Below are positions 4,138-50,315 of a stretch of 64,000 nt of DNA, piece by piece. The notes under the pieces are model-generated. The model was given only the letters and a program-made list of their open reading frames with translations, was not told the DNA's origin and did no database searches. Made by a program: the position numbers and the translations under genes. Numbering within the stretch: the first letter of the stretch is position 1; each line of letters starts with the position of its first letter. Origin of the DNA: a virus; the IMG/VR virus record IMGVR_UViG_3300045988_163643, positions 1-64,000 of that record, one strand, 5' to 3'.

Positions 4138-4149
4138 CATTTTTATAAA

Positions 4150-4176
4150 AAATAGGGAGAAATTTTCTCCCTATTT
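4150..4176 (-). terminator. intrinsic terminator hairpin
   Basis: ATAGGGAGAA/TTCTCCCTAT stem. Confidence 0.65.
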
Positions 4177-4179
4177 ATA

Positions 4180-4746
4180 TTATCTTGAACCTGTGCTTCC
4201 AAATGAACCTCTGTTTTCTGTACCTAAATCATCAGTTTCATTAAATTCAATAGATGGTGGAATCTTACATATCTCCATTTGACATATACGGTCACCTTTT
4301 TTAATCCATGTTCCACTTACAGTTACCTTATGTCCATTTATCATAACTTTCTCAGTTTGTTTTGCCATAGTACATTGAACTGGATACATATAGATATCAT
4401 CATTGCCACAGTATGAATTATCTATTACGCCAACGTGATTAGTTTGTATTATTCCAAAGTTTTTAAAAGTTGAACTTCTAGGATATAATTTAGCCATATA
4501 ACCTTCAGGTAGTTTTAATGAGAATCCTAAAGATATCAATGCTTGACCCATATAGGGAACAAATACATCTTCATATGCATATAAGTCTATAAAATCACCT
4601 TTTGATATTTTAAATAATTTATTAGCACCTTCTAAATATCTTATATCTGCTTTTAAAGTTTTAGTATCTTCAGAAGTATCTATAATATTTTCTCCTTTTG
4701 TATCTTTTAATCCTTTGAAATATTTATTTAAATCTATATTATCCAT
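4180..4746 (-). CDS. dut: trimeric dUTPase with N-terminal extension
   Basis: Motifs PRSS, GVIDNSYCG, GDRICQM and C-terminal RGSFGSTG. Confidence 0.85.
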   Translation of the reverse strand: MDNIDLNKYFKGLKDTKGENIIDTSEDTKTLKADIRYLEGANKLFKISKGDFIDLYAYEDVFVPYMGQALISLGFSLKLPEGYMAKLYPRSSTFKNFGIIQTNHVGVIDNSYCGNDDIYMYPVQCTMAKQTEKVMINGHKVTVSGTWIKKGDRICQMEICKIPPSIEFNETDDLGTENRGSFGSTGSR

Positions 4747-4988
4747 TATTTATCTTCTCCTTCTTTATTTTCTTCTTTTTCAGTTTCTCTTATAATTGCA
4801 TTAATCTTACCTATAATTATTTCATTCATTTTTGTTAATGCATCGCTTAATTCTTCTGAATCTTCTTTAGTCATTTTTTCTTTTATATCTATTTTTTTAC
4901 CATTTATTTCTAGTTCATATATTTCTAATGATAAAGTACCATTCTCACTAATTAATAATTCACCTATTTGTTCTTTCACAAATATCAA
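4746..4988 (-). CDS. hypothetical protein
   Basis: 80-aa ORF; stop overlaps dut start; consensus promoter upstream. Confidence 0.55.
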   Translation of the reverse strand: MIFVKEQIGELLISENGTLSLEIYELEINGKKIDIKEKMTKEDSEELSDALTKMNEIIIGKINAIIRETEKEENKEGEDK

Positions 4989-5007
4989 CTCCTTATATTT
5001 TATTTAT

Positions 5008-5036
5008 ATTATACTATTATTTTTCTTTATTGTCAA
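5008..5036 (-). promoter_or_regulatory. consensus promoter cassette
   Basis: -35 TTGACA 5031-5036, 17 nt, -10 TATAAT 5008-5013. Confidence 0.65.
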
Positions 5037-5044
5037 GAGAAAAT

Positions 5045-5383
5045 TTAAATAATCTCTCCTTTAAGTTTAATATTTTTTTCAAAAAAATATTCATCTTCAA
5101 GTATCTCAACAAACTTATCCTTTAAATCGTTCAATTGTTCTTCTGAATATAAACAATAAGATAAGTCTTCATCTGTAAGATGTAAAATTTCTTTTAATGT
5201 GCCTAATGTCATATAACAATCTAATAAAATTTTTAAATCATCATTTAAATTAAATACTTCTTTAATCATCATGTCTATATTATAATTATTATTTTTTATT
5301 TTTATATATTTCTTTTTTTGTTGATTCTTTAGAGTTATTAATAAATTTGTCAAAACTAAATTTGCATCATCATTAATTTTCAT
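5045..5383 (-). CDS. hypothetical protein
   Basis: 112-aa ORF in the co-directional array. Confidence 0.55.
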   Translation of the reverse strand: MKINDDANLVLTNLLITLKNQQKKKYIKIKNNNYNIDMMIKEVFNLNDDLKILLDCYMTLGTLKEILHLTDEDLSYCLYSEEQLNDLKDKFVEILEDEYFFEKNIKLKGEII

Positions 5384-12172: not shown

Positions 12173-13174
12173 TTATTTTGCTGAATTATCTGCATTATCT
12201 AAAGTCAATAATCTAATGTAATTTAAATATCCAATTTTTTTCACTAATTTTTCAGATGAACATTCTCTTTTTAACATCATATGATTATTTATTAACCAAG
12301 CTATATCCATAATATCTTTATCACAAAGTTTAGTATATTTTATTAATACATCTATAACATCATAAGCTGACATATTTTCATGATTATAATAATGACAATG
12401 TCTACCTTCTTCATCTTCTGTTTTTGCTATTGGTTTACTTATGTCATGCAACATAGAGGCTATTAATAAATTTTCATCAAGTTTACTAACTTCTTTAATT
12501 TTCTTATAACAAAAATACATATGTTTACTTAAAGATAAATTGTGCCATTTACTATCTTGTGGCATTTCTATGCAATTACTTAAGCCTAACTCAATCAATA
12601 AATTAATGTATTCTTTATAATCATCGCATTCAATAAATCTCTCTTTATCCATACCTAAGCCAAATTTTCTTCTATTGTCAATATATAATTTCATTCTATC
12701 ATCGTAATCTATAATAACTTCATCGAACCCTTCACATTTATGTGGTATTTCTATATTTTTATACATTCTTTCTACAACTTCATTAGGAACTTCTCTGTCT
12801 CTTGCTTCATTATCTATAATACAATTTGTTAAATTCTTATATTTAAATAAACAAATTGCTTTAGAATAATATTTTTTCATTTCTTTTAATAAGGCTCTTC
12901 TACGTTTGCTAGATATATTTGTAGCTTCATATATAGTCACATAACCATTAGATAAACTTTCTTTCGTTCTTTTCCTCATTATTTCAAATACTTCTTTATT
13001 TTTGCTTTGGTCTTCTATGTCATTTAATAATTCTTTTCTAATTTCATCTGATGATATAACTTCTATGTTTTTATTTTTATTTTCTTCTATATAATTTTTA
13101 ACCCAAGATGTTTTTCCACTTCCAGGTATACCAACTGTAATAATTAAGATTCCTTGCAATTTTTTTCCACCCAC
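12173..13174 (-). CDS. P-loop polynucleotide-kinase-like domain fused to an HD phosphohydrolase domain (RNA end-healing candidate)
   Basis: GIPGSGKTS Walker A at the N-terminus; C-terminal H...MLHDISKP...NH HD pattern; overlaps the RNA ligase gene. Confidence 0.7.
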   Translation of the reverse strand: MGGKKLQGILIITVGIPGSGKTSWVKNYIEENKNKNIEVISSDEIRKELLNDIEDQSKNKEVFEIMRKRTKESLSNGYVTIYEATNISSKRRRALLKEMKKYYSKAICLFKYKNLTNCIIDNEARDREVPNEVVERMYKNIEIPHKCEGFDEVIIDYDDRMKLYIDNRRKFGLGMDKERFIECDDYKEYINLLIELGLSNCIEMPQDSKWHNLSLSKHMYFCYKKIKEVSKLDENLLIASMLHDISKPIAKTEDEEGRHCHYYNHENMSAYDVIDVLIKYTKLCDKDIMDIAWLINNHMMLKRECSSEKLVKKIGYLNYIRLLTLDNADNSAK

Positions 13175-14379
13175 TTTCTTATTTCATTATATTTTTTATA
13201 CGCACCACTATGAGATTTAAGTATATTATATTTTCTTCCTAAATATTTCATTCTAACAAATTCTCTAATGTCACTATCTAAACAATTAATATATTTATGT
13301 AATTCTTTATCTGTTTGAAGATTACCTTTATTTCTTAATAATTCTATATTTATTCTATTTTTTGTTATTTTCTTATTCATTCCAACTATAAATTTTTCTA
13401 TGGTATCTATTGTGTTTTTATTTGTTTCTTTTAGTGAGGACGACATATTAGCATATAAATCATCTATTGTACCATCTGCATATGCTTTTATTATTGTGTT
13501 AGCAGAACTTAATTTATCATTTAGTCTATGTAATTGTAGATAGTCTTCACATTTAAGTTTTATTTTATGACCGTCTATATTTAATACAAACCCTTCTCCA
13601 TCGTTTATTGTCATTTTATTTAAACGTTCTAAAACTTCTTCTAAGGTATCACATTGATAAATCTTACAACAAGGAACATTAAATTTTATTGATGTTTTTT
13701 TAATGTATTTATAATCATATTCTTTACCATCTAAAACGCTTCTCATACCTATAAGATATAGACCCTTTTCTTTGGAATAGTCATAAGGAATAACATGCTT
13801 ATCTTTTTCTGATATATATTCAAATATAAATGTTATCATTGGACAACTTTTTATCATCTGTTTATGATTATCTGTTAACATTTCAAATCCTTCTTTTAAT
13901 CTAAATGAATTATTTATATCTAAAGATATACTTCCACTACCAACTATTTTTCCGTTATAATACCTATATGATTGCATACTACCATCTAATTTTTCAGATA
14001 CTTCAAACATATCGCAGTTGTTTATTTCTTCTTCTATAATATCTTTCATATTTTCTTTTACTTCATTCATATTAAAAAATTTTCTAAATGGTGTTAATAC
14101 CATTTCTTCATTTTTTATATCAAAAACTAAACTTCTTGCTTCTCTCAGTGGAGAGTTTTCATCTTCCCACATATTTCTTCCCATTTCATGTAATTTATAT
14201 CTAATTAATACTAAGTCATCTTTTTGATTAATTTGTACTTCATCAAATATTTCATTATATGGAATTCCTTCTTCTTTCATTGTATTAATCATGCCATTGA
14301 AATTTACATAATCTCCAAAATACTTAATATAATCATGTTTTAACTTAATACATTCATCAAACATTTTATTCCAACTCAT
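13144..14379 (-). CDS. ATP-dependent RNA ligase (Rnl1-like nucleotidyltransferase)
   Basis: Motif I SEKLDGSM (KxDG), EGFVL (motif IV), KIKLK (motif V). Confidence 0.75.
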   Translation of the reverse strand: MSWNKMFDECIKLKHDYIKYFGDYVNFNGMINTMKEEGIPYNEIFDEVQINQKDDLVLIRYKLHEMGRNMWEDENSPLREARSLVFDIKNEEMVLTPFRKFFNMNEVKENMKDIIEEEINNCDMFEVSEKLDGSMQSYRYYNGKIVGSGSISLDINNSFRLKEGFEMLTDNHKQMIKSCPMITFIFEYISEKDKHVIPYDYSKEKGLYLIGMRSVLDGKEYDYKYIKKTSIKFNVPCCKIYQCDTLEEVLERLNKMTINDGEGFVLNIDGHKIKLKCEDYLQLHRLNDKLSSANTIIKAYADGTIDDLYANMSSSLKETNKNTIDTIEKFIVGMNKKITKNRINIELLRNKGNLQTDKELHKYINCLDSDIREFVRMKYLGRKYNILKSHSGAYKKYNEIRKWVEKNCKES

Positions 14380-14423
14380 ATCATCATCTCCTTAAAAATA
14401 ATAGCTTGTGTATCTTTAATTAT

Positions 14424-14468: not shown

Positions 14469-15443
14469 TTATTCAGTATCTTCATCATATTTACTTAATA
14501 CTTCACCTAATGTTTTAGATAATTCATCTTTATCTACTTCTTCATCTACTTTATTTTCTTCTTCATCCTCAGTATCTTCTTCATCTTCTTTGTGGCAATC
14601 ACAATTTCCGTCACATTCACAGTTTCCACCACATTTGCATTCTTTTTTATCTTCCATTTCCTCATCTCCTTCATAATTTTCTTCAACTTCATCGTCAACT
14701 TCTTCTTCATCATCGTTTAATCCTAAAATTTCAGATAAACCTGTATGTAATAAAGTTATCGCTAATTCTCCTTCTTCCATATCCATTAATTGAGCAAAGG
14801 TTTGAACTGCTAAAGCAGTTGCTTGGTTAAATCTTTCATCTAATTCGTCCCAATCAGGTTCACAACCTTCATATCCATAATTTATTATTCCTAACTCTAT
14901 TGCTTCCTCATAATCTATCCAATCATAACATAATCTTGCTTTTTCAACTCTTTCTTTAGTCATATTGGTATTATCGTAAATTATTTGTTCAAATTGTTCA
15001 TCGGTTTTTGCAGAAAATTCTACTGTTCTTCTTTGTTCTTCTATGTATCCCATATTATATGAACTACCACCATGATTCATAAATCTAGCTAATTTACCAG
15101 CAGTTCTCTTCATTCCATTAACATATATTATAAACGCCATTGAATATGCAAAATTACATCGAGTATTAACTTGTATTCCCATTTCCTTCATTTCATCCAT
15201 TCTATGGATTATAGCAGTACCTGAACTAGTGCAACCACCATAACTACTTATTTCTATTGTTATAGGAGGAAAAGGTTGTAAAAATATAGGGTTGATTAAA
15301 GAAGATTCAGTTTTATATTGTTCATATGCTTCTATTATTTTATCAGTTTCTTCATAAAAATATTTAAGTGTTTCTACATTTATTTCGCCAACTATTCTTA
15401 CAGTAGTATTCATTTCTTTTTCATTTTTATTTTCCATATTCAC
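14469..15443 (-). CDS. ClpP/S14-family serine protease-like protein with acidic, Cys-rich C-terminal tail
   Basis: ISSYGGCTSSGTAI, catalytic-Ser context FAYSMAF, His context FMNHGG; tail KECKCGGNCECDGNCDCH. Confidence 0.65.
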   Translation of the reverse strand: MNMENKNEKEMNTTVRIVGEINVETLKYFYEETDKIIEAYEQYKTESSLINPIFLQPFPPITIEISSYGGCTSSGTAIIHRMDEMKEMGIQVNTRCNFAYSMAFIIYVNGMKRTAGKLARFMNHGGSSYNMGYIEEQRRTVEFSAKTDEQFEQIIYDNTNMTKERVEKARLCYDWIDYEEAIELGIINYGYEGCEPDWDELDERFNQATALAVQTFAQLMDMEEGELAITLLHTGLSEILGLNDDEEEVDDEVEENYEGDEEMEDKKECKCGGNCECDGNCDCHKEDEEDTEDEEENKVDEEVDKDELSKTLGEVLSKYDEDTE

Positions 15444-15490
15444 TAGTCTTCCCTCTTATGAGGTACTTCCTTTCTTATTATTTTAATTAT

Positions 15491-15519
15491 ATTATACTAA
15501 AAAATTTATTAAAAGTAAA
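15491..15519 (-). promoter_or_regulatory. consensus promoter cassette
   Basis: -35 TTTACT, 17 nt, -10 TATAAT. Confidence 0.6.
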
Positions 15520-15522
15520 TAG

Positions 15523-16086
15523 TTATTTCAAAATTTCTATTTCTAAAGTTATAGGATTAATGTTTATAATTTCTACAATGTTTTCTTGTTGTAAAGCATA
15601 TCTAATAGTATACCATGTCCCACCATGTTTTTCATGATTCCAACATGAAATAAGAACATTAGAATTATCTATCATTAATTCATTTCTTTTTATTAATTTT
15701 GCAATATGATATTCTCCTTCTATTGTATCTTTAACTTTATATTGTTCTACAGTGTCAACATAAATAACCTCATCACATTTTGATTTCATGATATTATAAA
15801 CTTCAATATCATTTTTTCTCCATTTTTTATATTGTTTTTCAAAAGGTATGCAACCTATTATATTGGTTTTTTGTCTACTAAACCATAATTCCTCAAAGGC
15901 TATTGTATCAAATCCTAATGCTAAACCATTATAAGCATTAATTATTTCACCATATTTATTTTCAACATAAGAAAAAACTTCTTGTAATTTATCTCTCAAT
16001 GGGTCGTATTTTTTACTGTAAATATTATCACCATATAACCCTTTTGGTCTATGACCAGTGAAAGATATATTAACCATATATTTCAC
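15523..16086 (-). CDS. SLOG-fold protein of the YpsA/DUF1273 family
   Basis: N-terminal ISFTGHRPKGL signature and GLALGFD block. Confidence 0.65.
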   Translation of the reverse strand: MKYMVNISFTGHRPKGLYGDNIYSKKYDPLRDKLQEVFSYVENKYGEIINAYNGLALGFDTIAFEELWFSRQKTNIIGCIPFEKQYKKWRKNDIEVYNIMKSKCDEVIYVDTVEQYKVKDTIEGEYHIAKLIKRNELMIDNSNVLISCWNHEKHGGTWYTIRYALQQENIVEIININPITLEIEILK

Positions 16087-16732
16087 CTACTTTTATTCTT
16101 TTTTTATTATCTAAAATTAAACATCCTTTATCTGTTATTGCATAATTTAAAGTTTGCTTAAAAGAGCAATCTAAAAATCTATTAAATTCTCTAAATAATT
16201 CTTCATGATTTTCTTTATCATAATGGACAAATAAGTTAACTATATCTATTAACCCTATTCCTTCATATTTCATTGGTATTGCATTTGTCATTACTACATA
16301 ATATTCTAATAAACACAATGAACCAGCTGACTCCCCTATTAAAATTTTATTATCCAATTGTTTTATTGTATCTAATAATTTATATTTCTTTAACATCATC
16401 ATTAGCATATCCATAGAACCACCAGTAAAATATATTATATCTGACGTATTTATTAGCCATTTAATAAGGTTTAAATTGTCCAAAGGAGTAATTACATTAA
16501 AATCTTTAATCCCATACTCTCTGAAGTGTTTATTATGTTTATTATAAAATTTACCATTATATTGTAAATCAGTTTGATTTTTAAATAAATATTCTAAGTC
16601 ACAAGCAAATGGAATACATGCTACTCTTGAATTAGGTTTTATATATTCTTTAACTTTATTATAACATTGTTTATCTTCTAAGTAATCAGCATTAGATAAC
16701 AATATGTATTTATTCATATTAACCACCACCAC
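16070..16732 (-). CDS. peptidase S51 (dipeptidase E)-like protein
   Basis: IYFTGGSMDML...ILIGESAGSL nucleophile-elbow pattern. Confidence 0.6.
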   Translation of the reverse strand: MVVVNMNKYILLSNADYLEDKQCYNKVKEYIKPNSRVACIPFACDLEYLFKNQTDLQYNGKFYNKHNKHFREYGIKDFNVITPLDNLNLIKWLINTSDIIYFTGGSMDMLMMMLKKYKLLDTIKQLDNKILIGESAGSLCLLEYYVVMTNAIPMKYEGIGLIDIVNLFVHYDKENHEELFREFNRFLDCSFKQTLNYAITDKGCLILDNKKRIKVGEIYG

Positions 16733-17420: not shown

Positions 17421-17452
17421 AAAAAAGAGTAGAGAAAAATCTCTACTCTTTA
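17421..17452 (-). terminator. intrinsic terminator hairpin
   Basis: AGAGTAGAG/CTCTACTCT stem. Confidence 0.65.
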
Positions 17453-19356
17453 TATGAAAAATATACTATTATCTTTATCAGCACAAATTATTTTAGTAGT
17501 TTTATTTGATTTTCTAAGTTCTTCTTCCATCTTATCTCTAAATTTATATTTACTATCATCACTATGATGTATAACAATTAAATTAGTATTAATACCTTTC
17601 ATCATTTTAATTATTTCTTCTCCTTGTATATGAGAAGACCATGTATTATATCTTATAACTTTAGCTTTCTTTTTAAATGACATATTTTCAATTTTAACTT
17701 CTTTAGTATTGTCTTTTAATAATAATCCTCCTACTGTCGTTGGAGCACAATAGCCAATTATCATTATAGTATAATTACTATCTTCTATATTTGCTTTTAA
17801 ATGATTTAATATTCTACCTATATTACACATACCAGCAGATGATATTACAATTTTTTGTTGTTCTTTATTAAGTGCTAAATTCATAGATGATTCAAAATCT
17901 TTTACAAAATGAAGTTTTTCCCATGATAATATTTTTTCAAACATATCTTTATCTTCTTTGTTTAATATTTGTTTATAAACATCATTGATTTCCAAAGAAA
18001 GTTTACCATCTAAGAATATAGGAGTTTTAAAATTTGGGTCATTAGAAAAAGTATTATATAAGTAATATAATAAATCTTGAGTTCTGGCTTGAGCAAAAGC
18101 CGGTATTAAAATTGAATGACCTTGTTTTAATTCATTGACTATATCGTCTTTCATTTTCTTTCTTTCTTTTTCGATATCTTTTGCATTAAATCCTCTTGAT
18201 AAATCTGAATAAGTTGCTTCTGTTATTACTAAATTAGCATTTGATATAGTTTTAGTTTTTTTACGGAATGGTTGTTGATTATTAAAACTACCTGTATCTC
18301 CACTATAATATATTTTTTTTGTAACTCCACTTGGCATTTTAAAGAATAATTCTATTGAAGTTGCTCCTACTATATGGTTATTTGGCAAAAGTCTAAAGCT
18401 AACATATTCGTTTAGTTCATGTATAACATCTTCTTCATAAGTAGAAGTCTTTGACAGCATTCTATATACATCGCTTTCAGTATAAAGAGGTTCTACTTTA
18501 TATCCTTGATTACTCATTTGTCTACAATTTCTTTGTAATATATAAGCACCATCTATCAATAAAGGTTCGGATAATTCTTTATTCTCATAACCCATAATAA
18601 ATTTATCTACATTATCTACTATAGCTGGTAGATTTCCTATATGGTCTAGTGATTTCAAAGATGTGAATGAGATACAAAACAAGCTTTTATTTGACCACAT
18701 TCACAAACTTTTTCAACCACCCCCTTATTAACTACATATTCTTCTCTTAAAGCACCATTCATTTGAACCATACCACATTCAATAAGAACTTTTTCATAGT
18801 CTCCTTCTTTTGTTGGATACGATAAAAGTATAGAAGTTCCAACAACTCCATTATGACTTTCTCCTACGAATTCAACTATTACTTTATTTTTATTTTTCTT
18901 ACTTATAATATATGGATTCTTTTTCTTTTTTTTCTTTTTCTTAATTACATTGAGATTTTCTTTTCTACAATCCAAAAAATCACCATTTATAAATTCTATT
19001 TTATTATCATTTCCTAATATGTAATTTTGTAAAGTTGTATTTTTGCCTAATACATCTCCAATGATACAAGAATGTTTTTTATTCCATCTTACATTTTTAC
19101 ATGTTTTTACATCATCTAAATCTATTAATACTCTTTCTTCAAGTTCTTCTTGAAATAAAGCATCATATAATACAATTTCAGCATAATCTTTATGTATTAT
19201 TATTTCATTATTGTCAAATTCTGTTACAGGACTATCTGATATACAAAAACCATATTTCCTATATTCATCCCAATGTTTTTTACAAAGTCCATTTTTATTT
19301 TTTTTGCTTAATAATTTTCCACATTGGCTACAGTATTTTTTATTATCTTTATCCAT
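17450..19356 (-). CDS. metallo-beta-lactamase/beta-CASP nuclease with N-terminal Zn-ribbon + degenerate HNH-like module. Split into ORFs 18655-19356 and 17450-18700 inside the HxHxDH motif
   Basis: The upstream ORF ends ...CFVSHSHL*. The other frame continues LDHIGNLPA. Downstream: ITEATYSD and IVIHHSDD. Confidence 0.7.
18647..18660 (-). other. candidate translational bypass: take-off CUU (18658-18660), stop UGA, landing CUA (18647-18649)
   Basis: Skipping 11 nt gives a perfect HSHLDHIG. Confidence 0.35.
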
Positions 19357-19883: not shown

Positions 19884-20282
19884 TTAATCTACTCCTAATT
19901 CTGTAATGTTTGTATTAAAATTTTCATTTAAATATTCACGCAAAATATGTCTATGGCAAAAATCAGTAGACTTTTCATAACACAATAATACAATTTCCGT
20001 ATCTGTAATTCCTTCATAATCATACATATCTTCGAGTATCTGTTCTAAATCTAATTCTTTTAATTTATCAATATACGCATTTATGAAATCTTCTTGTGAC
20101 ATATTATTATTTTTTAGTTTAAAAACATTATTACTAGATGGTGCTAATGGTTTATACTCCATATAGTATTCTTCCCTATCTAAGAACCATTTAGGTAAAC
20201 TGGTTGAAATTAATATCGGCATATATCTATCTTTTTCTTCTTTTGGTAACCTAGAAAAACGTGCATAATAACTTGTTTTCAT
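19884..20282 (-). CDS. DUF488-family protein
   Basis: MKTSYYA start and LLCYEKSTDFCHRHIL signature; start moved to the Met that follows AAGGAG. Confidence 0.6.
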   Translation of the reverse strand: MKTSYYARFSRLPKEEKDRYMPILISTSLPKWFLDREEYYMEYKPLAPSSNNVFKLKNNNMSQEDFINAYIDKLKELDLEQILEDMYDYEGITDTEIVLLCYEKSTDFCHRHILREYLNENFNTNITELGVD

Positions 20283-20297
20283 CACAATCACTCCTTT

Positions 20298-23200
20298 TTA
20301 TTTATTTGCTTTTCTATATTCATATTCTTCTCTATTTAGTTCTTCTATTTCTTCTTCATTAAGTAAATGGTATTCATCACACCATATTTCAAACTCTCCA
20401 TTTTGTACCCATTTTGTTTTAATTATTGTATTTCCATCTTTATCTATTGTTTCAACTTCTTTTTTTTCTTTTTTTGCTTTTTGGAACATATGATATACAT
20501 TAATTACACTAAATGCTTTAAACGGTTGTGCTTCATAAATTCCTTCACCAACTTTTATTTCTATAGTTTTTCCAGTACTTATATTAAAAATCCATGCTTT
20601 TTTATTTTTAAATTTAGTTATAACATCAATAACGATACAAGTTGATGAATCATAATCTTCAAAATAATAGTTGCATTCTCCTGTCATTTCAAGATTAATT
20701 TTAACTTTGTCTATTGATGACATTTCATTATCTTCTATATTCAACATTAATTCATTACATAATTCTAATGCTTTTTCTACTTTATATTGTTTATATTTAT
20801 CTTCTTTACTCTTTTCAGTTGCATATTTTTCTATTATTTCTTTAGGATATGGTAAATCAGCTTTATTAAATGACACTTCACCTTTCTTAGATTTTAATTT
20901 TTTACTCATTATTTTTTCATATAAATCTATAATATCTAATAGTTTTTGAGATTTACCAAATTCATCGAAGAAATCTATTGCTATCAATATATTAAGTTGT
21001 CTTGAATTTATAGATGTTTTATCATTTAAATCAATAAGTAAATCCATAAAACTATTATATTTATTATCTTTTAACATATATAATTCTTGTGATACTTGTT
21101 CGTTCATATATTTTATACTAGCCATACCTTTATATATAGAATTGCTTTCTTTATCCATAAAATATTCAGCTTTAGAATATCTAAATTTAGGAGGTAATAA
21201 TTTTATATCAAAATAACTTAATTCTTTTATTAGTCTATTTGTTCTAGTTGAATCATCGGAATAAATAGATAGAGCAACTGTATAATATTCAAGAGGATAA
21301 TGCGATTTTAAAAATGCTCCATACAGACTATCATAGGCATAAGAAAGTGAATGTGAAGCATTGAATGAATATTTTGAAGCATCATTAACTACTTGCCATG
21401 TTTCTTCAAATCCATCAATTGAACCAACTTTATCTATCCAACCTTTTTTTAATTTTTTTTCTAACTCTATTAATTCTTTTTCTTTAAATTTTTTCTTTGA
21501 TATTTTTTTTATAATTCCATATGTTTCAGGTTCAGGAATACCTAACCATATTAAATATTTCATAATAGATTCTTGATACATTAAATAATGATAACTATCT
21601 TCTAATAAATTATCCAATTCTTTTACACCTGTTGTATATGGTTTTCTTTCTATAAAATTATCTAATAAAGAAGCAAATCCTGGTCTAATTGAAGCAACAA
21701 ATGCACTCATTTCGGCTACACTAGAAACTTTATATCTTGATGCTAAATTGGTTGCAAAATCTGAATCAGATTGATTTATTGTACAAGTTATTTTATCTTC
21801 ATATATTTTAAATGTTTTTTCATCTAACATTTTTTCTAATTCTTTAATAGTCGGTATTTTAATATTAGCTAATTCACAAGTTTTTCTTATTAATGTCCAA
21901 ACTGTAACCGCAAGATACGTTAATACCGTTCCTTTCGGAATACTTTAACACCCATTTAAGGGTCGGACTAGACTATACCTTTATCTTCGACATTACTCGT
22001 TAAGATATGCCTATTATAGTCGTTGAAGGTTAATATGTTTATTATTTAATTATTTCATTTATAAAAATTTTATATTTTCTATCCAAATAAATATTTGCAT
22101 CTTTATATAATATATAATAAATTTCTTTTATTTTATTAAAATTTCTAGTTACACAAGTATAAGTATAATCTCCTTCTTTTTTTATTTTTGTATTAAATTT
22201 TAAATAATTTTGTATAAAAATACAAGTTTCTTTTGTACCAGTATAACCAAAATGATATTGAGGATTTTTTAAATAATTATAATGATATACTTTTATACTA
22301 CCATCACCATCGAACATACCTCTCACAAAATGATTTAATAATTCTTTAGGTATAAAAGATAAAACTCTATTAATATCAATTTCATAACTTTTTCTATTTG
22401 TAAAACCAATATTTCTTAAATCATCACAAAGTTGTTTACAACCTATACTTATACTTGGATTTCCATCTTTATTATATTTTATAGGATGAGTACTTTTAAG
22501 GGATTTTTTAAATTTTTCTATTTCATCTAAATCTTTCATACATAACATTACTTTATTTCTTTTAGATATATGTCCATCGGCTAATAATAAACCTAACCAA
22601 TATGCTTTTTCTTCTGTATCAATTGTTGAGAAATAATTTTCATCTACTTCATAAATACCATTATATCTTTTTCTTAATTTTATATCCCATCTTTTAAATT
22701 GTCTTTGTATTGTTGACCCATCACAATTATAAATTTTTCCTATTTGGATAGTACTTAATTTTTCTTTAAAATATAAATTTAATATATTATCTTTTTCTTT
22801 ATCCCAAAATTCAAATCCACCATTACTCTTATGCAATATTTCATCTCCATTTATTTTATTTAATAAACATATTATTTCCCTGCTGATTATCCATTCATTC
22901 ACCCTTAGCACCCTTACAAGGCTTTTATTTCAGCTTAGGTAATCCTTATAATTTTTTCTGCTTTCGCAACCATCAAGCTTAATGTTACCATTTACTTTGT
23001 GGTTTATAAGGCTTTAGGAACTCCCAGCAATTTAAGGCATCATAATCTACATAATTTCTTATATAGACGACTATTAAATTAATCATTCTTTAGATATTTA
23101 TAAACATCACAATTATAGCCATCTAAATTACAACATATTCCTTCTTTAGTTTTTATTAAACCAATTTCTTCTGAAACATTTTTATCATATAGTAACATTG

Positions 23201-26054
23201 AACAAGGTGATTCTGATATACTTTCTACTACTCCTTTAAATACTTTTGAATCTTTTATTATTTTTCCCCAATATTCATCATTTTCATATTGTTCTAAATT
23301 TTTAGCTATTTCATCATATTTACTAACATGCATATCATTTGCCTTACACCATAGTCTAAAAGCAGATGAATCTTGTAAAGGTTTATATGATAAAATCCAA
23401 GCACAATTTTCTTCGCCTAATAAATCTTTAGTTGCTTGTATAAATACTGAACGGTCTTCTGTATTTAAATCTACATCAGGCAATGAACGTGTACCTAATA
23501 TACGTTCTATACTCATAAATCTAGTTGGATACAATGGAACTGGTGCAGATAACCTATCTATTTCTGTTAAACCTAATAATTTATTTATAATAAAACTTAC
23601 AGCCGAATTATGAACTATCATATTATTAAGTAAATAACTATGCTCATTTTCAACTTCTATATCATATACTGTGGTTTTTTGTTTAGGTAATATAATGATT
23701 TCCTTAATAGGAAGATAATAGTAATTATTATCCTCGAAAGTTCTTTCATTTTTTTTCTGTGAATAATTAGAATTTTTATTTAATCTTAATTTATAAGATT
23801 CTTTACATAAATACCCTTCTTTCATTTTATGTTCTTTTCTTACGCTTAAACTATTTACTCCTTCATCCGTCATTAAACATAATAATTTATATGCGTTTAT
23901 TAAAGATTTTGAAGTATTATCGAAATTGATTCTATATTCACAAAAGCTTCCATCTGATAATCTTAATCCTTTTACTATACCTAATAAATTTTCTTTTGAT
24001 TGATTAAACCATTTTTCATTAAATATTTTATCTTTTCCTTTTTTAGATTCAAATAATTCCTGTTTAACAAAATTACAAAATACTGTAGAATTAATATATA
24101 ATTGACTTAATTTTTTAGTTTTACTTACATTTTCATATATAGATTTATTTAATTTAGATGCTATATTATAAAATATTTCTCTATTATATTTATCTTTTTC
24201 AGTAGTATTGTTTATGGCTAATCCAACACTAGTTTTTTTAGAAGTAAATCCGTCGCCATACATCAATCCTATAAATATATTAAATTCTTTATCTATTTCA
24301 ATATATCTTTCTAATTTTGAAAATTGTTTAGATTTAACATATTTAGAATATTCTTCTTGGGTATTAAAAGGTATATAATCCATTAAAGCTTTATATTTAT
24401 CTTTTTTCCTATTAAAACAATTTTTTTTCATATTTGCAAAATTTTCTACTAATGACTTACCAACACCTATTTTTCTTGCAACATCACTAGGAGAATATTT
24501 ATAAATAGTATTAGTTTTTTCATATATATATTTATCATCAAAATCAAATCCGTTGATATTATAATCATTTAAATCAATTATCTTATTTAAACTATCCGTA
24601 ACATTTATTTTAGGTACACATACATAATCTGTTTTCACTATATCTTTTGCTTGTATCCATTTTAATGTATTATTTCTGTTTATAAGTATTTTATGGTCTA
24701 AAGTACATACAGTTGGATAATATTTATCAGTACCATAGATATGTTTAATTTGAACTAATTCTTCTTCTATATCATATTTTGCAGTGTTAATTACCTTATT
24801 AAAATTTCCACTTTCTGTAATTACATAATCACCTATTTTAACATCCTTTATAGATTTTAAAGAATTTTTTGTATGAACTAAAGCATCTTCAGTAAAACAT
24901 CCTCTTCCAGTCTTGGTTAATAAACCATTATATTTATTTATTGCTCTTTGACATATTTTATAATCTAATATAAAATAATCTTCCATATGTGTTTTTTCGA
25001 TTATATTAAATTCATATTTTATAGCATCTAAATACTCATGCCATTTTTCTTTAGGTATCGTATCTCTTATTTCCACCCATCTTTTATTAATTATATCTTT
25101 TAATTCTTTATTTGGATTATCAGATATTGATGGCATTTTAATTTCTTTATCCAATATAATATTTTCACATTCGTCAAAAATTAAAGTATTATTAATTGCG
25201 ACTTTTATTTGTTCTTCACTTAATACATTTTGTTTATTATATCTTTCTATTATAGTTTCTACATTAGGATAATCTAATATAAAATTTGTTTCTTCTTTAT
25301 ATATAATACCTTTTGCTTTAAGAAATAATTCTCTATAAATATAATCTTGTGGATTAATATAATGAGAATCATTACCATGAATGATATTAATATTATATTT
25401 TTCACTTAAACATATAATTTTTCTATTAAGATTTTTCTGTATATCTTCATTATGGTTTTGAACTTCTAAATAAAAATTATCACCAAAATATTCTTTCATT
25501 TTTATAATCCAATCATCTAAGCCTTCATCATTTCTTAAACGACCAGCAACACAAGCAGTTGTTACGATTACATTGTTTGGATTAACACTAAATAATAATT
25601 CATCATCTATTCTATTTTTATAATATACTCCATCTATATTGCTATAGGATAATATTCTATTTAAATCTCTATATCCATCTTTGTTTTTTGCTATTATAAC
25701 TAAGTGATAATTAGAATTATCTTTTTCTTTTCTATCTTTAACATAATATACTTCTGCACCAACTACCATTTTAATACCTTTGTATGATTTATCACAAACA
25801 TCTTTATATTGACATTTTTCACAATTATGTTTAGTATATTCATTATTTTCTTGAGTAAGTTTCACACATACTTCACTACATAGAGTATGTGCTTCATATA
25901 CGTTACCTTGATAACCATGTTCAGTAGTAAAATATATTGCATCTTTACCATCTAATTCAATTGCTCTAACTATATATTCTATTGGTTTAGCGACTACATC
26001 TAAACTTTTAATATTGCTATATATTTTATGTGAATGATAATTATTACATCTCAT
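20298..26054 (-). CDS. dnaE: DNA polymerase III alpha (DnaE-type). Exons 26054-23082 and 21926-20298; exon 1 carries an intein
   Basis: PHP motif YHSHKIYS..D; TGRG|intein|SAVSFIINKLLGLTEID; exon join ...YKYLKND|VLTYLAVTVW... matches the spacing of K.DfLGL..LTvi. About 1102 aa after removing the intein. Confidence 0.8.
21927..23081 (-). mobile_element. group I intron in dnaE carrying a LAGLIDADG endonuclease
   Basis: The 5' exon ends in U (GAU) and the intron ends in G. GC-richer non-coding flanks at 22912-23081 and 21927-22041. Confidence 0.6.
22042..22911 (-). CDS. LAGLIDADG homing endonuclease (intron-encoded)
   Basis: YWLGLLLADGHI and FVRGMFDGDGSI motifs; N-terminal HTH-like segment. Confidence 0.85.
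   Translation of the reverse strand: MLRVNEWIISREIICLLNKINGDEILHKSNGGFEFWDKEKDNILNLYFKEKLSTIQIGKIYNCDGSTIQRQFKRWDIKLRKRYNGIYEVDENYFSTIDTEEKAYWLGLLLADGHISKRNKVMLCMKDLDEIEKFKKSLKSTHPIKYNKDGNPSISIGCKQLCDDLRNIGFTNRKSYEIDINRVLSFIPKELLNHFVRGMFDGDGSIKVYHYNYLKNPQYHFGYTGTKETCIFIQNYLKFNTKIKKEGDYTYTCVTRNFNKIKEIYYILYKDANIYLDRKYKIFINEIIK
23607..24899 (-). mobile_element. intein (431 aa) with LAGLIDADG endonuclease domain, inserted in the GRGS motif of DnaE
   Basis: Starts CFTEDALV, block B TLDHKIL, ends IVHN followed by Ser; internal IGLMYGDGF and VKGLRLSDGSF. Confidence 0.85.
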
Positions 26055-26084
26055 ATATATTCTCCCTTCTTTCCTTTATTTATA

Positions 26085-46128: not shown

Positions 46129-46140
46129 CTCCTTTATTAT

Positions 46141-46939: not shown

Positions 46940-48589
46940 TTAAAATTTATTAGCTTTCCATTCTTCCCTCAATTCTTTTAATAAGTCTTTAAATTCGTCT
47001 TCTTCATGATAATTATTAAAATCCATATCAAAATCTATTTCATTTTGTTCGTTTTGAACAACTTTTCTACCTAATATTTCGTTTTCAACTTCTCGCATAA
47101 TTTCTAATTTGTCTTTCTTAAATTTATTTGTTTTAATTTTATCTAAATTTTTATAATCATGATTTTGTATAAGAAAAACTATTTCACTTATATCGTCCAA
47201 TTTATATCCTAATCTTAATAACACTTCCATACTTAAATAAGCAGATATTTTACTATTACCTCTTAAATCATTGAAACATAATGGTTTTCCACAATCATGC
47301 AATGCAATTGCCATTAATGTATTTTTATTTTTAGTTAATTTAGCACCTTCTTTTAATGATTTATACAAATGATTATTTAAATAATAATTTCCATCTTTAT
47401 CTATATGTTCATCACTCATATGAAAACCTATATTATTTTTTAATCCTACTTTTTTTAATAATCTATTAAATTCTATAAAATCAATGTTAGTAAACTTATT
47501 ATCAATATTGTATGTAATTTCATTATTGGAATTATCTACATATCTTATCTCATCAAATCCTTCATTTATATCAGGCAAATTAAAAAATCTTAATTTTTTA
47601 TAAATATACTCATAATCTTTATTATAATTCACTATACAATCATCAAAATTTTTATATATAAACACACCAATTATTTTAGATGCTAAACAACCTAATTTAT
47701 CGATTAATGATTTTCTATTGTGCTTATTCATATTACACATATCAATTATCACGTTTTTACATTGCATTAAAAGTTCACTAGCTTCAGAAATCATAGTTTG
47801 AAATAAATTTTCTTCTTTAACTCCTTGTTTTCTTAATTTATTAGCAGATATAATAAATATAGAGTCAAATTCAACTTCTAATTGTTTACAATATAATGTT
47901 TTACCCGAATTAGGAAGTCCTGTTAATATAAATAATTGTCTTTTATTAGCATAAACATTAGATAACTTTTTTAACGCCTTTTGCTCTAATCTAGTAACGT
48001 GACTTCTATCTACACCTAATAAAGTAGCTACTTCTTGTTGAGTAGGAAAATTTTCTCCATATCTTAAATTTATAACTTTTTGTTCAGCGTTAGTTAATAC
48101 TTCTTTCATACTTTCACGTATTTCTTTATTTAGAAGATTATTTTCAGCAGATTCTTGAACATTTATTTTTTCATCAAAAAGACAATCTTCTATAACAACC
48201 GAGTCATCATCTTTTTTGGTTTCTATTGTGGTATTCATACTACACTCTTTATATTTAGCTCTTTTCACATAATTAGCAGTACGCAAAACCATTCTTAGTT
48301 CATTAGAAACACACGTTGCTAAATATGTACTCCAATTTGTATCTCCCAATATATCATATGTGTCTACAGCTTTTAACAACCCTATCATTCCAGTTTGTAT
48401 AAAATCTTCCCTATCTTGTTCATTCAATACAAATTTATTAACTATCTTAGATACTAATTTTGTATTATGTAAAATTATGTTATCCCTAATTTCTTTTGAC
48501 CCAGTTTCATTATATTCTTTTAACAAATCCATCATTTCATCTTTAGTTAAATTTTTATATTCAAACAAGTCTTTATTCAATTTAATCAT
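46940..48589 (-). CDS. sigma-70-family factor fused to a P-loop kinase + HD phosphohydrolase module
   Basis: Region 2 DREDFIQTGMIGLLKAVDTYD; region 4 TQQEVATLLGVDRSHVTRLEQKALKKL; then GLPNSGKT and ALHDCGKP...IQNHDY. Start placed at the Met after AAAGGGG. Confidence 0.75.
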   Translation of the reverse strand: MIKLNKDLFEYKNLTKDEMMDLLKEYNETGSKEIRDNIILHNTKLVSKIVNKFVLNEQDREDFIQTGMIGLLKAVDTYDILGDTNWSTYLATCVSNELRMVLRTANYVKRAKYKECSMNTTIETKKDDDSVVIEDCLFDEKINVQESAENNLLNKEIRESMKEVLTNAEQKVINLRYGENFPTQQEVATLLGVDRSHVTRLEQKALKKLSNVYANKRQLFILTGLPNSGKTLYCKQLEVEFDSIFIISANKLRKQGVKEENLFQTMISEASELLMQCKNVIIDMCNMNKHNRKSLIDKLGCLASKIIGVFIYKNFDDCIVNYNKDYEYIYKKLRFFNLPDINEGFDEIRYVDNSNNEITYNIDNKFTNIDFIEFNRLLKKVGLKNNIGFHMSDEHIDKDGNYYLNNHLYKSLKEGAKLTKNKNTLMAIALHDCGKPLCFNDLRGNSKISAYLSMEVLLRLGYKLDDISEIVFLIQNHDYKNLDKIKTNKFKKDKLEIMREVENEILGRKVVQNEQNEIDFDMDFNNYHEEDEFKDLLKELREEWKANKF

Positions 48590-48680
48590 CCCCTTTACAC
48601 TTATAACATATTTTTTTAATAAATAATTTAAGCATATTATAAATAGAATAGCAATTTTACTATTATTACTTCTATTACAA

Positions 48681-50288
48681 TTAATTTTCATAGAAAACTT
48701 TATATAATTTATATGTTTCTATTAAATCACGTTTACTAATTATTTCCATTGGACTATGCATGCCTAATGTAGACACTCCAGCATCCATTGTCTCCATACC
48801 TCTTATTCCAAAGAACATAGCAACCGTTCCCCCACCGCCTTCACTAACTTTAACTGTATCAACTTGATATTTCACATCATTATCAATACATAAATCTTTT
48901 ATATATTCTCTCATTTCTATACTTGCATCATTTCCTCTTTTTAATCCAGTAAATGGCACTAAGGCAACACCATTGCCACATACTGCTTTTGCACTATCTT
49001 CAAAATGACTACTATAATTACTATCAAATCCACCAGTTACATCTGCACTAATTACCTTTGTATTTCTCATAAATTCTCTAGCTAATAACATATTTCCATT
49101 TGCTAAAGTAAGGAATATATCATCTATAAATTGAGTTTCAGCACCACTCATTTGTCCACTTCCAGTTTCTTCATAAGCAGTAAATAAAGCTATCTTTGTT
49201 ATTTTATTAGGTTTACTAGTTAATATAGCTTCTAATTCAGCATAAGCACAACTCTTATCATCATGTCCATATCCCATTAATAAATCTTTATCTAATCCCA
49301 TTTCTAATGTTTTAAAATAAGGTACAAAACTTAAGTCAGCTAATTCAAAATTCTCTTTTGTTATTCCATATTCTTTTTCTAACATTTCAAATAGTTCTTC
49401 TTTATTTCCATTACTCATTCTTACTAATAATTTATCATAAGATAAGTCTTTCACTTCTTTTCTACCTTTTAGGTGAGGTAATAAACTAGTTATAGAAAAT
49501 AAATGTCCTTTTTCTCCAGTATTTATATATTTTATTTCATCATCTACTTTTATTTTCCCAACCATTACAAATGGTCTATCTAACCATAATTGTGGTATTA
49601 TTCCACCATATGGTTGTGTTTTTATAAAAGTACCATCATCATTAGATACAATTGGATTACCTACTATAACATCTAATCTAGGACTATCAATATGACTTAC
49701 TATTAAATTAGCACCTTTTGATATGTCCTCGCCTATTTCTATTAAAGCTATCAATTTATCTCTAAATTCAAATATAACCTTATCTCCTACATTAAAGTAT
49801 TTTGAATGATTATAAGATTTATATCCTACATCTTCTGCTTTATCCTTTATATATTTTAATACTTGTGTTTCATGCAATCCTTCTTCTAATAAATATTTAT
49901 ATTCATCTATAAAATTATCTTCTTCATTATTATCTTGTGTTTTATACAATATTTTTCCTAATAAATATTTTACTTCTTCATCAATTATTTCTTTTAAGGT
50001 ATCATATTTTATATCAGGTGAACATTTTGAATATACAACATTATCTCTAAATATTATTTTTGTTCTTGATTCTTTAGCTACAATAGTACGAGTGTTTAAG
50101 TCATAAATCTTTTTCCATTGAGTTGGTAATTCTTTTCCATTCACCCAATGATAACCTAATTCTTCTAATGATATTAACACTTGTTCAATAATTTCTTTAT
50201 CATTGTTGACTTCAATTATAATTTGTTTATCATTTTTTTCACTTAATTCTTCTATTAAATTTGTTAGTCTTTTTATACTCATATTCAT
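48681..50288 (-). CDS. M18-family (aspartyl-type) aminopeptidase with ~130-aa N-terminal extension
   Basis: SHIDSPRLD, GYGHDDKSC, YEETGSG, GGGGTVA, GMHSPMEI. Confidence 0.7.
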   Translation of the reverse strand: MNMSIKRLTNLIEELSEKNDKQIIIEVNNDKEIIEQVLISLEELGYHWVNGKELPTQWKKIYDLNTRTIVAKESRTKIIFRDNVVYSKCSPDIKYDTLKEIIDEEVKYLLGKILYKTQDNNEEDNFIDEYKYLLEEGLHETQVLKYIKDKAEDVGYKSYNHSKYFNVGDKVIFEFRDKLIALIEIGEDISKGANLIVSHIDSPRLDVIVGNPIVSNDDGTFIKTQPYGGIIPQLWLDRPFVMVGKIKVDDEIKYINTGEKGHLFSITSLLPHLKGRKEVKDLSYDKLLVRMSNGNKEELFEMLEKEYGITKENFELADLSFVPYFKTLEMGLDKDLLMGYGHDDKSCAYAELEAILTSKPNKITKIALFTAYEETGSGQMSGAETQFIDDIFLTLANGNMLLAREFMRNTKVISADVTGGFDSNYSSHFEDSAKAVCGNGVALVPFTGLKRGNDASIEMREYIKDLCIDNDVKYQVDTVKVSEGGGGTVAMFFGIRGMETMDAGVSTLGMHSPMEIISKRDLIETYKLYKVFYEN

Positions 50289-50315
50289 CTCTCCTTTATT
50301 AACTTATTTACTTAT

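Follow-up and report, generated by a model that had tools for sequence, protein, structure and literature searches.

A conserved break in a phage beta-CASP nuclease gene is probably crossed by a short translational bypass over a stop codon

In the window analysed here, the 64,000-nucleotide (nt) stretch that forms positions 1 to 64,000 of the IMG/VR virus record IMGVR_UViG_3300045988_163643, a putative phage nuclease of the beta-CASP family is encoded by two open reading frames (ORFs), of which ORF1 ends at a UGA stop codon inside the metal-binding motif HxHxDH and ORF2 continues the same motif in another frame. From comparison of this junction across diverged relatives, we consider it likely that a programmed translational bypass, or "stop-hop," makes one full-length nuclease, with the peptidyl-tRNA leaving a Leu codon immediately before the stop and re-pairing with a synonymous codon beyond it. 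The window is 25% G+C, has every gene on the minus strand, and is tiled well by the standard bacterial code (code 11); the TGA stop is scarce in it, ending 3 of ~70 minus-strand ORFs.

ORF1 (19356-18655, minus strand, including the UGA) has 233 codons and ends ...CFVSHSHL followed by TGA. Through the take-off codon (18658..19356, minus strand), it encodes a Cys-rich, degenerate HNH-like N-terminal domain (residues ~1-150), which a poly-Lys linker joins to the opening ~80 residues of a metallo-beta-lactamase (MBL) domain, ending in HSHL. ORF2, in the +2/-1 frame, extends without a stop from 18700 to a TAA at 17450 and reads ...SLKSLDHIGNLPA (...SLKSLDHIGNLPA); from the codon at which decoding would resume to the TAA (17450..18646, minus strand), it encodes the rest of the MBL domain, the beta-CASP domain and a C-terminal RMMBL-like segment. 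The minus-strand mRNA at the break is CAU UCA CAU CUU UGA AAUCA CUA GAC CAU. The His-Ser-His codons CAU UCA CAU (18661..18669), which are the first half of MBL motif 2 and also the 3' arm of a predicted hairpin, are followed by the proposed take-off codon CUU (Leu; 18658..18660) and by the UGA that would occupy the A site at take-off (18655..18657). The skipped 11-nt coding gap, UGAAAUCACUA (18647..18657), runs through the landing codon CUA (Leu; 18647..18649), the proposed re-pairing site of the peptidyl-tRNA, and the resume codon GAC (18644..18646) is the Asp of HxHxDH. Deletion of the 11 nt TGAAATCACTA (18657-18647) yields ...HSHLDHIGNLPA, with HSHLDH as beta-CASP motif 2, and the tryptic peptide predicted across the junction of this hop product is ACFVSHSHLDHIGNLPAIVDNVDK. 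An earlier note on this DNA had described the two ORF ends and their frames in this way, which the minus-strand sequence confirmed, and had claimed that a hop from CUU to CUA restores motif 2 exactly while a simple -1 or +1 shift does not. Both parts of that claim held, since a -1 shift at the window site would yield HSHLLKSLDH and the +1 frame is unrelated sequence.

The two ORFs are predicted to be one gene for a ~631-residue phage beta-CASP nuclease of the MBL fold. The Pfam Beta-Casp family matched ORF2 with an E value of 8e-26 and the hop product with an E value of 3.5e-26. In PHROG 36352, ORF1 residues 153-232 aligned with profile positions 5-77 and ORF2 residues 2-376 with positions 80-474, leaving over exactly Leu and Asp between the two matches; because these coordinates are adjacent, the ORFs appear to be neighbouring parts of one protein with nothing lost or added. 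Alignment of the hop product with solved beta-CASP nucleases showed no gap at the junction (cfvsHsHlDHignlP against CILTHAHLDHSGLVP in 8yhd_H, E value of 4e-28), nor was there a gap at the junction in an alignment of 28 sequences comprising the hop product and 27 intact homologues. Residues H230, H232, D234, H235, H324, D350, E376, H572 and H594 were invariant in the latter, and by sequence the hop product carries MBL motifs 2 (HxHxDH), 3 (H) and 4 (D) together with beta-CASP motifs A (D/E), B (H) and C (H). The AlphaFold2 model of the hop product had a mean predicted local distance difference test (pLDDT) score of 90.2 and a predicted template-modelling (TM) score of 0.87; the pLDDT was 94-95 near the junction, which in the model falls between a strand and a helix, as motif 2 is placed. 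Foldseek matched the model to the type VII CRISPR Cas14 nuclease, CPSF73, IntS11 and Thermus TTHA0252, Cas14 and CPSF73 being the top matches and the target-normalised TM score reaching at most 0.89 (TTHA0252). The first ~150 residues, Cys-rich and degenerate HNH-like, are common to intact homologues of ~625 residues. The exact HxHxDH spacing, which is conserved only if the gap is hopped, suggests a single polypeptide lacking residues from the gap.

The DNA of the relatives was in every case metagenomic, and their junctions were read from retrieved contigs. They fell into 13 classes. The broken codon was the same in every class; the gap measured 1, 2, 5, 6, 7, 8, 9 or 11 nt, and ORF2 was in the +0, +1 or +2 frame. 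The window type, CUU UGA AAUCA CUA GAC, has the 11-nt gap (+2). Gaps of 8 nt (+2) were found in CUG UGA GU CUA GAC (L001, L018 and L019), in CUU UGA AG CUA GAC (L004-6, L013, L015 and L016), in CUU UGA AA CUA GAC (L017, L070 and L075) and in CUU UGA AAC CA GAC (L003), in which CCA precedes the Asp codon. The gap was 7 nt (+1) in CUG UGA A CUA GAU (L002) and 5 nt (+2) in CUU UGA UA GAC (L114), with AUA before Asp. The in-frame classes were CUU UAA CUA GAC (L011, L012, L014 and L071-74; 6 nt), CUG UGA CUU GAC (L113; 6 nt), CUU UGA GAA CUA GAC (L110; 9 nt) and a class with Val in place of Leu, GUC UGA GUA GAC (L127 and L129-L133; 6 nt). The shortest gaps belonged to CUC UAG AUC (L111 and L112; 2 nt, +2), where the move would be from CUC to CUA and then to GAU, and to CUU UGA C (L108 and L109; 1 nt, +1), which is the prfB site.

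The stop stood straight after the take-off codon in all 13 classes (UGA in 11, UAA in 1 and UAG in 1), and in all 13 decoding would restart at the Asp codon of HxHxDH. The take-off codon was CUU in 8 classes, CUG in 3, CUC in 1 and GUC in 1, all of them wobble codons; CUA and GUA were never used there. The triplet before the Asp codon was synonymous with the take-off codon in 10 of the 13 classes (CUA in 8, CUU in 1 and GUA in 1), so that 9 of the 10 matched classes have an NNA codon at the landing site. The unmatched classes were two singletons (L003 and L114) and the class with the 1-nt gap. The spacer bases varied freely among classes in both sequence and number, and close relatives differed by indels that preserve this logic, CUU UGA AA CUA minus two bases being CUU UAA CUA. 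In the window TTA makes up 75% of Leu codons, CTT 10%, CTA 4.8%, and CTG and CTC 0.3-0.4% each; CUG and CUC thus serve as take-off codons in the family although each is ~0.3-0.4% of Leu codons in the window. Standard wobble rules predict a U34 tRNA, with the anticodon UAG (Leu) or UAC (Val), whose pairing would be weak on the take-off codon and perfect on the landing codon. The site has what is looked for in bypassing, namely, two segments that encode one protein, take-off and landing codons that the same tRNA could read, and a slow codon in the A site.

The Val class was yielded by a second, alignment-based scan for intact DNA, whose patterns were too generic and returned few loci. It belongs to a 36%-identical subfamily that lacks the N-terminal domain and is represented by five contigs, one being a 95% variant; its intact sisters (L123 and L124) read CAU GUC CAU GUA GAC. 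It represents an independent origin of the break, with Val in place of Leu.

The gap is fixed in the clade of the window. At least 14 further contigs, assembled independently by different assemblers and from different metagenomes, carried the identical 11 nt (L007-L010, L059-L065, L068 and L069), and a sequencing error is therefore excluded. In a collection of 5.8 billion proteins, no allele without the insert was found among relatives of >70% identity, all of which were called as C-terminal pieces of ~400 residues, and the nearest full-length proteins were at most 69% identical. The ORF1 cluster of the clade had 85 member sequences and the ORF2 cluster 103, and the ~230-residue ORF1 was kept in all broken relatives. 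The comparison of orthologs that the earlier note had called for thus went in favour of its proposed CUU-to-CUA hop over the UGA, the break being kept at the same codon in diverged relatives.

Purifying selection acts on both halves of the gene between broken lineages. For L004 (8-nt gap) and L011 (6-nt gap), the rates of nonsynonymous and synonymous divergence (dN/dS) were 0.082/0.64 (ratio of 0.13) in ORF1 and 0.020/0.36 (ratio of 0.06) in ORF2, and in the first 30 codons past the landing site the corresponding ratio, pN/pS, was 0.15. Deep broken pairs with a dS of >1 had both ORFs intact, without further stops or shifts. In 6 of the 13 classes (gaps of 1, 2, 6, 6, 6 and 9 nt) the landing frame contained no ATG, GTG or TTG from its last stop up to the Asp codon; because a start codon is absent there, the conserved DHxG(N/L)LP segment can be reached solely from ORF1 in these six.

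In a neighbour-joining tree, broken and intact genes were interleaved in two clades, and a third clade, in which the x position is held by Gly, Tyr, Phe, Ala or Gln, was wholly intact. The intact sisters of broken genes had CUA (L066), CUU (L115) or UUA (L116 and L117) as the codon at x. A single old gain of the break followed by several losses is plausible, because slippage between the CUN and CUA direct repeats would excise the gap precisely. Among GenBank phages there was no near-identical DNA, and matches at the protein level were at most 36% identical and intact. Five remoter beta-CASP cluster representatives (P0144, P0162, P0172, P0197 and P0249), which are 26-36% identical to ORF2, were called as proteins of ~400 residues that start 2-10 residues before DH (for example, MNLDHVGN and MPDHIGL); no DNA for these five was found in IMG/VR. 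The same break may recur more widely, in such remoter subfamilies.

Two upstream elements that the earlier note had not described accompany the gap, the first being a near-perfect Shine-Dalgarno sequence inside ORF1. In the window it reads AAGGGGGUGG (AAGGAGGUGG in the close variant L068), lies at 18717..18726 on the minus strand and is 57-60 nt 5' of the take-off codon. All broken classes of the main family had AAGGAGGUG(A/G) or AAGGGGGUGG within the codons for Asn-Lys-Glu/Gly-Val, ending 57-60 nt 5' of take-off. The string AAGG(A/G)GGUG was present at this fixed place in 20 of 20 unique broken sequences, while in 64 of 67 intact sequences the match in the same region was 5 nt or less. The match to AAGGAGGUGAUC, the complement of a Firmicute 16S 3' end, was exact over 11 nt in six sequences. 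In intact sisters these residues are the same but their codons are ordinary A/T-rich ones, as in AAT AAA GAA GTA ATG of L115 against AAT AAG GAG GTG ATG of the broken L002, and the intact L117, L066, L020 and L116 resemble L115 at this site; given the codon usage of the window, the probability of AAG GAG GTG for Lys-Glu-Val is 6e-4. The surrounding ..EYxxNKEV.. motif is conserved in intact genes too. The Val class has UAGGAGGU, whose end is 32 nt 5' of take-off; nothing of the kind is present in its intact sisters.

GGAGGTG or GGGGGTG occurred four times on the sense strand of the window, the nuclease site being the only internal one. Two of the others, at 46132 and 29627, lie just 5' of ORF ends and look by eye like ribosome-binding sites, and the third precedes a start codon. 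The motifs at 46132 and 29627 (minus strand) read AAAGGAGGTGAT and AAAGGGGGTGAT, so that the GGGGG variant of the nuclease gene is also found at a putative ribosome-binding site. A role for the nuclease site itself as a ribosome-binding site for ATG 18700 or for a small ORF was considered and rejected, as the spacing is 14 nt and neither the start nor the mini-ORF is conserved.

A predicted hairpin is also associated with the gap, an association supported less strongly than that of the Shine-Dalgarno sequence. Its 5' arm lies at 18698..18711 (minus strand), where AAAG..UGUGAAUG pairs with CAUUCACA..CUUU; that is, UGUGAAUG (18705-18698) is predicted to pair with CAUUCACA in the His-Ser-His codons and AAAG with CUUU, and the tail of the Shine-Dalgarno sequence, GGUGGUU, with the gap bases AAUCACU. 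The 18730-18641 segment folded with -24.9 kcal/mol, against a mean of -14.4 kcal/mol for dinucleotide shuffles (z = -3.8; 1 of 200 shuffles as low). The arms in other classes were GAUGUGU/ACACAUC, GAUGAGCA/UGCUCAUC, GUGCA/UGCAC, UGUGG/CCACA and UGUGAGU/ACUCACA, the last in the register of the window and with a compensating change. For pairing of the upstream region with the HxH/take-off region, the best duplex had -7.6 to -18.3 kcal/mol in broken and -2.2 to -7.6 kcal/mol in intact sequences, and the combined Fisher p value for synonymous recoding of the 5' arm was 4e-5 in broken and 0.44 in intact sequences. The Val class has a clean 8-bp hairpin, GGGAGUGU/GCACUCCC (-14.3 kcal/mol), whose 3' arm is again on the His-Ser-His codons and ends 2 nt before GUC; its Shine-Dalgarno sequence is 6 nt 5' of the stem. 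A search of Rfam around the window site returned no family at an E value of 1 or less.

These features can be assembled into the following mechanism. When CUU (Leu) occupies the P site and the A site holds UGA, termination would be slow, and the peptidyl-tRNA-Leu, merely wobble-paired, would release CUU. The mRNA would then move forward until the anticodon finds its best match, in the window by sliding 11 nt to the better-matching CUA, and decoding would restart at GAC to give HSHLDH; ribosomes that terminate instead would release the 233-residue fragment. The upstream Shine-Dalgarno sequence and the hairpin probably stimulate or direct the forward movement. In the picture we prefer, the 5' arm of the hairpin would be free just behind the ribosome and would re-zip as mRNA leaves the exit channel, pulling the message forward by about the number of pairs left to form (8-12 in the window), and the gaps are of similar order. 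As to the Shine-Dalgarno sequence, the 16S tail of the same ribosome could pair with it across the inner hairpin in its folded state; alternatively, it could hold back a trailing ribosome. For a ribosome that paused there, the P site would be ~54 nt (main family) or ~27 nt (Val class) behind take-off, which would be two and one collision spacings of ~9 codons, respectively (PMC6815119).

A tentative extension, to which we would give a little less than even weight, treats all five elements (Shine-Dalgarno sequence, hairpin, wobble take-off codon, stop and cognate landing codon) as one compact and evolvable cassette for efficient short-range bypass. The very strong distal Shine-Dalgarno sequence and the re-zipping hairpin would act as a spring, and the cassette would have had at least two origins at one catalytic motif of phage nucleases. 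Gating of nuclease output by release-factor activity or ribosome traffic may be what maintains it; alternatively, by analogy with the gene 60 insert and MobA, the interrupted conserved DNA may shield the phage's own gene from a site-specific nuclease. Further instances were not found. The window held 25 other stops with a nearby codon that shares two bases with the codon preceding the stop, all at ordinary gene junctions with their own starts, and a doubtful pair at 48683 was rejected as a hop, being an M18 aminopeptidase (48681-50303) followed by a sigma-factor fusion protein (46940-48718). A search of IMG/VR for the cassette in unrelated genes with the pattern AAGGAGGTG-N44-70-CATCTTTGA gave 45 matches, all due to chance (other frame, no HxH/DH).

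Several observations weigh against a hop. The hop is a prediction from sequence comparison, and all the sequences are metagenomic, from no cultured phage. The singleton classes L003 (CCA) and L114 (AUA) have no matched landing codon; both are single contigs, one 3-nt deletion or one substitution away from the AA-CUA class. The relative P0122, which is 64% identical to ORF1, ends ...HAHLSTTQDYYQQL, like a DHTGLLP... segment displaced by 2 nt, and appears shifted, its Leu codon having no stop directly behind it; P0122 would be a variant whose A-site codon is a sense codon, or else a damaged copy. No tRNA gene, which might have accounted for the hop, was found in the window. A Shine-Dalgarno sequence ~57 nt from the shift site is without precedent, and its role is guesswork because known stimulators lie only 3-10 nt away. 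As to the hairpin, RNAalifold recovered only the invariant AGGUG:CAUCU pairing, the per-sequence shuffle p values were modest, and at take-off the 3' arm would sit inside the ribosome. Column-wise covariation was not demonstrable because helix registers differ between classes; the energy comparisons and synonymous-recoding tests were used in its place.

Also unfavourable to a hop is that the window and six other classes have an ATG, GTG or TTG in the landing frame near the stop, where coupled re-initiation is possible. The TTGA or GTGA overlaps resemble translational-coupling overlaps, and gene callers predict separate starts (MKSLDHIG in P0001, MSLDHTG in P0011 and MKLDHIG in P0057). The enzyme could accordingly be split, with ORF1 ending at UGA, ORF2 starting separately at the TTG in cuUUGA or at ATG 18700, and the two chains assembling. 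We consider this unlikely, since no canonical start precedes Asp-His in the six start-less classes (all those that are in frame or have a 1-nt or 2-nt gap), where DHxG(N/L)LP is still under purifying selection, and since the sole Shine-Dalgarno sequence is 14 nt from the non-conserved ATG 18700 and none lies at a usable distance. The cut would moreover fall within a six-residue metal-binding motif, and the synonymy of the pre-Asp codon with the last ORF1 codon would be left unexplained. Frameshifting (+1, +2 or -1) at CUU UGA, or readthrough, with the gap translated and 1-4 extra residues tolerated between HxHL and DH, draws on the fact that CUU UGA is a known shift-prone site (prfB; PMC6815119), and for the 1-nt and 2-nt gaps (L108 and L111) a plain +1 or +2 shift is the same event as a hop. 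It is quite unlikely: three mechanisms (+1, +2/-1 and readthrough, including that of the strong stop UAA) would be needed at one conserved site, the products would carry lineage-specific, non-canonical motifs (HSHLKSLDH, HAHLELDH and HTHL?LDH), whereas HxHxDH is exact in all 67 intact homologues and the solved relatives, and the conserved CUA/GUA landing codon amid a variable spacer would be unexplained.

It is very unlikely that the defect is removed before translation, either by cutting the extra bases from the RNA or by reassignment of the stop through an alternative code or suppressor tRNA. Rarity of TGA in the window would suit reassignment, which however cannot mend the +1 and +2 classes, and all three stop codons occur across the classes; alternative codes 4 and 15 were tried and rejected, as code 11 tiles the minus strand and they merge no minus-strand genes. 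RNA removal finds no Rfam match at the site, and we know of no process that splices 1-11 nt out of bacterial mRNA. There remains the alternative raised in the earlier note, that an 11-nt insertion, by mutation or as the footprint of a mobile element, inactivated the nuclease and that the ORFs are decaying. A stop and a frameshift do break an essential catalytic motif, and mobile elements are abundant in this genome (the intein and LAGLIDADG ORF in dnaE), with TnpB also near one relative and an insertion sequence by the phage c-st homologue. We reject this alternative as extremely unlikely, because both halves are open and under purifying selection in lineages with saturated synonymous sites (dS of >1), the dN/dS between close broken lineages being 0.06-0.13. 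The lesions, moreover, all affect one codon and are not joined by further stops or shifts, at least 14 assemblies in the clade of the window have the gap as a fixed feature, and co-evolved upstream signals are present.

Short hops over stops have precedents in synthetic constructs. The in-frame CUU UAA CUA of L011 and its relatives is exactly the type of CUU-stop-CUA arrangement that the earlier note mentioned from reporter work; one 1987 reporter hop reportedly used CUU UAG CUA, a string not found in the literature that we searched. The synthetic Escherichia coli stop-hops, with matched codons around a stop, are cited as cases in which nine nucleotides specify one amino acid (Weiss, Dunn, Atkins, Gesteland 1987; as cited in PMC5009743 and bioRxiv 10.1101/2022.08.31.505936). 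The natural CUU UAA CUA, CUG UGA CUU and GUC UGA GUA have exactly this frame-independent form. Whereas the reporter hops were artificial and of low efficiency, the putative hops described here are natural, kept across lineages of ~45% amino acid identity, span 1-11 nt and are accompanied by upstream signals. A 2016 review stated of natural in-frame stop hopping that "no occurrences are known" (PMC5009743), and no description of recoding in the beta-CASP genes of phages turned up in our literature searches.

The established prfB +1 frameshift at CUU UGA C (PMC5009743) shares with the nuclease site CUU in the P site, UGA in the A site, a forward move, restart at GAC (Asp) and an upstream Shine-Dalgarno-like sequence, which in prfB is a stimulator, and L108 and L109 carry the identical site. 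Ribosomes stalled at UGA can hop to codons that match the P-site anticodon, and a high ribosome load suppresses prfB shifting (PMC6815119). The prfB Shine-Dalgarno sequence is, however, 3 nt from CUU, against ~57-60 nt here (~32 nt in the Val class) with a hairpin between, and the codons just 5' are those of His-x-His here; unlike the prfB re-pairing on the overlapping UUU, most classes would move 5-11 nt to a non-overlapping codon. The window is thus not a case of prfB-type frameshifting, since an 11-nt move is needed and there is no adjacent Shine-Dalgarno sequence, and the autoregulatory logic of prfB is not directly transferable because the gene is a phage nuclease and not a release factor.

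T4 gene 60 also has a stop after its take-off codon, and its forward drive has been attributed to pairing of the mRNA leaving the ribosome (PMC5462505, PMC6551183 and bioRxiv 10.1101/2024.12.09.627546; gene 60 and its homologues are further treated in PMC11194080 and bioRxiv 10.1101/2022.08.31.505936). Its 5' stem-loop is proposed to pull mRNA forward, as we picture for the hairpin here. The two systems would be analogous in logic and not homologous, as no T4-like record gave a near match or one at the protein level. Here 1-11 nt would be skipped, against 50 nt in gene 60 (20 nt in one of its clades), Leu or Val codons take the place of Gly GGA, no stem-loop 3' of the take-off codon was evident here, and the gene 60 Shine-Dalgarno sequence is 6 nt before the landing site, whereas ours is far upstream. 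The gene 60 family involves a topoisomerase gene, a KKYK nascent signal and a MobA element; here the gene encodes a nuclease and has no MobA-type homing cassette beside it.

In gap size, the nearest natural parallel is a candidate bypass in terminase genes of Streptomyces phage Hau3 and prophages, where the inserts are UUA-led and 7-10 nt long and an internal Shine-Dalgarno sequence and stem-loops are likewise present (PMC10732093). The slow codon there is the rare sense codon UUA (host bldA tRNA), against a stop codon here, and the inserts are in 3 of 100 terminase genes, with partial experimental support; unlike them, the nuclease site persists through deep divergence, with many gap lengths and with take-off/landing synonymy across lineages. 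The mobile "byp" elements of Magnusiomyces capitatus mitochondria (27-55 nt, 81 sites) have an unused codon in the A site and relaxed mitochondrial decoding (PMC5009743). As with the putative hops here, short inserts are bypassed, and two-out-of-three landing matches are tolerated, which is relevant to the AUA and CCA variants; unlike byp, the nuclease break is at one specific site in one gene family and under bacterial-type translation.

Taken with this background, the comparisons support a short translational bypass that is natural and conserved and is accompanied by signals not described before. Short stop hopping has been known from reporters since 1987, and natural cases have long been expected, but well-studied natural bypassing is in essence limited to T4 gene 60 with its homologues and one yeast mitochondrion, besides a few weakly supported phage candidates. 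The nuclease family is a natural series close to a ready-made mutational analysis, in which gap, frame, stop and amino acid vary while the take-off/landing logic and the two upstream elements are fixed, and it offers testable questions on peptidyl-tRNA release, the choice of landing site, mRNA refolding as a drive and the action of a Shine-Dalgarno sequence from ~60 nt. If the cassette reading is true, the family would be the first natural, comparatively resolved model of stop hopping and would hold a new kind of long-range recoding stimulator. For annotation, gene callers split these genes into proteins of ~230 and ~400 residues, with ~100 members per half in the clade of the window.

Within ORF1, an A-rich run, aag aaa aag aaa aaa aag aaa aag (~18919-18940, minus strand), encodes eight Lys between the N-terminal and nuclease domains; runs of this kind can be slippery for polymerases and ribosomes. 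The nuclease gene neighbourhood attracts mobile elements. In L111 a TnpB (OrfB_IS605/Cas12f-like) gene (4142-5188) lies ~500 nt downstream of the broken nuclease gene, and a homologue in Clostridium phage c-st (AP008983 160535-161092), which matches the first 40% only, lies beside the annotated ISCbt1. In the window, dnaE (DNA polymerase III alpha; 20298-26075, minus strand) is in pieces, 23079-26075 encoding the PHP domain, an intein and part of the polymerase core, 22042-22929 being a LAGLIDADG endonuclease-like ORF, and a separate ORF at 20298-21830 having the finger and HhH domains; the polymerase could be reconstituted from a split gene, through an intron or through a second intein. Neighbours at 14469-16732 and 19884-20291 (minus strand) encode a ClpP-like protease, a YpsA/SLOG protein, a peptidase S51 and a DUF488 protein. 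A T4 Rnl1-type RNA ligase (13144-14391, minus strand) adjoins a kinase (AAA_33) and HD phosphohydrolase protein (12173-13183, minus strand), and the pair looks like an RNA (tRNA) repair module.

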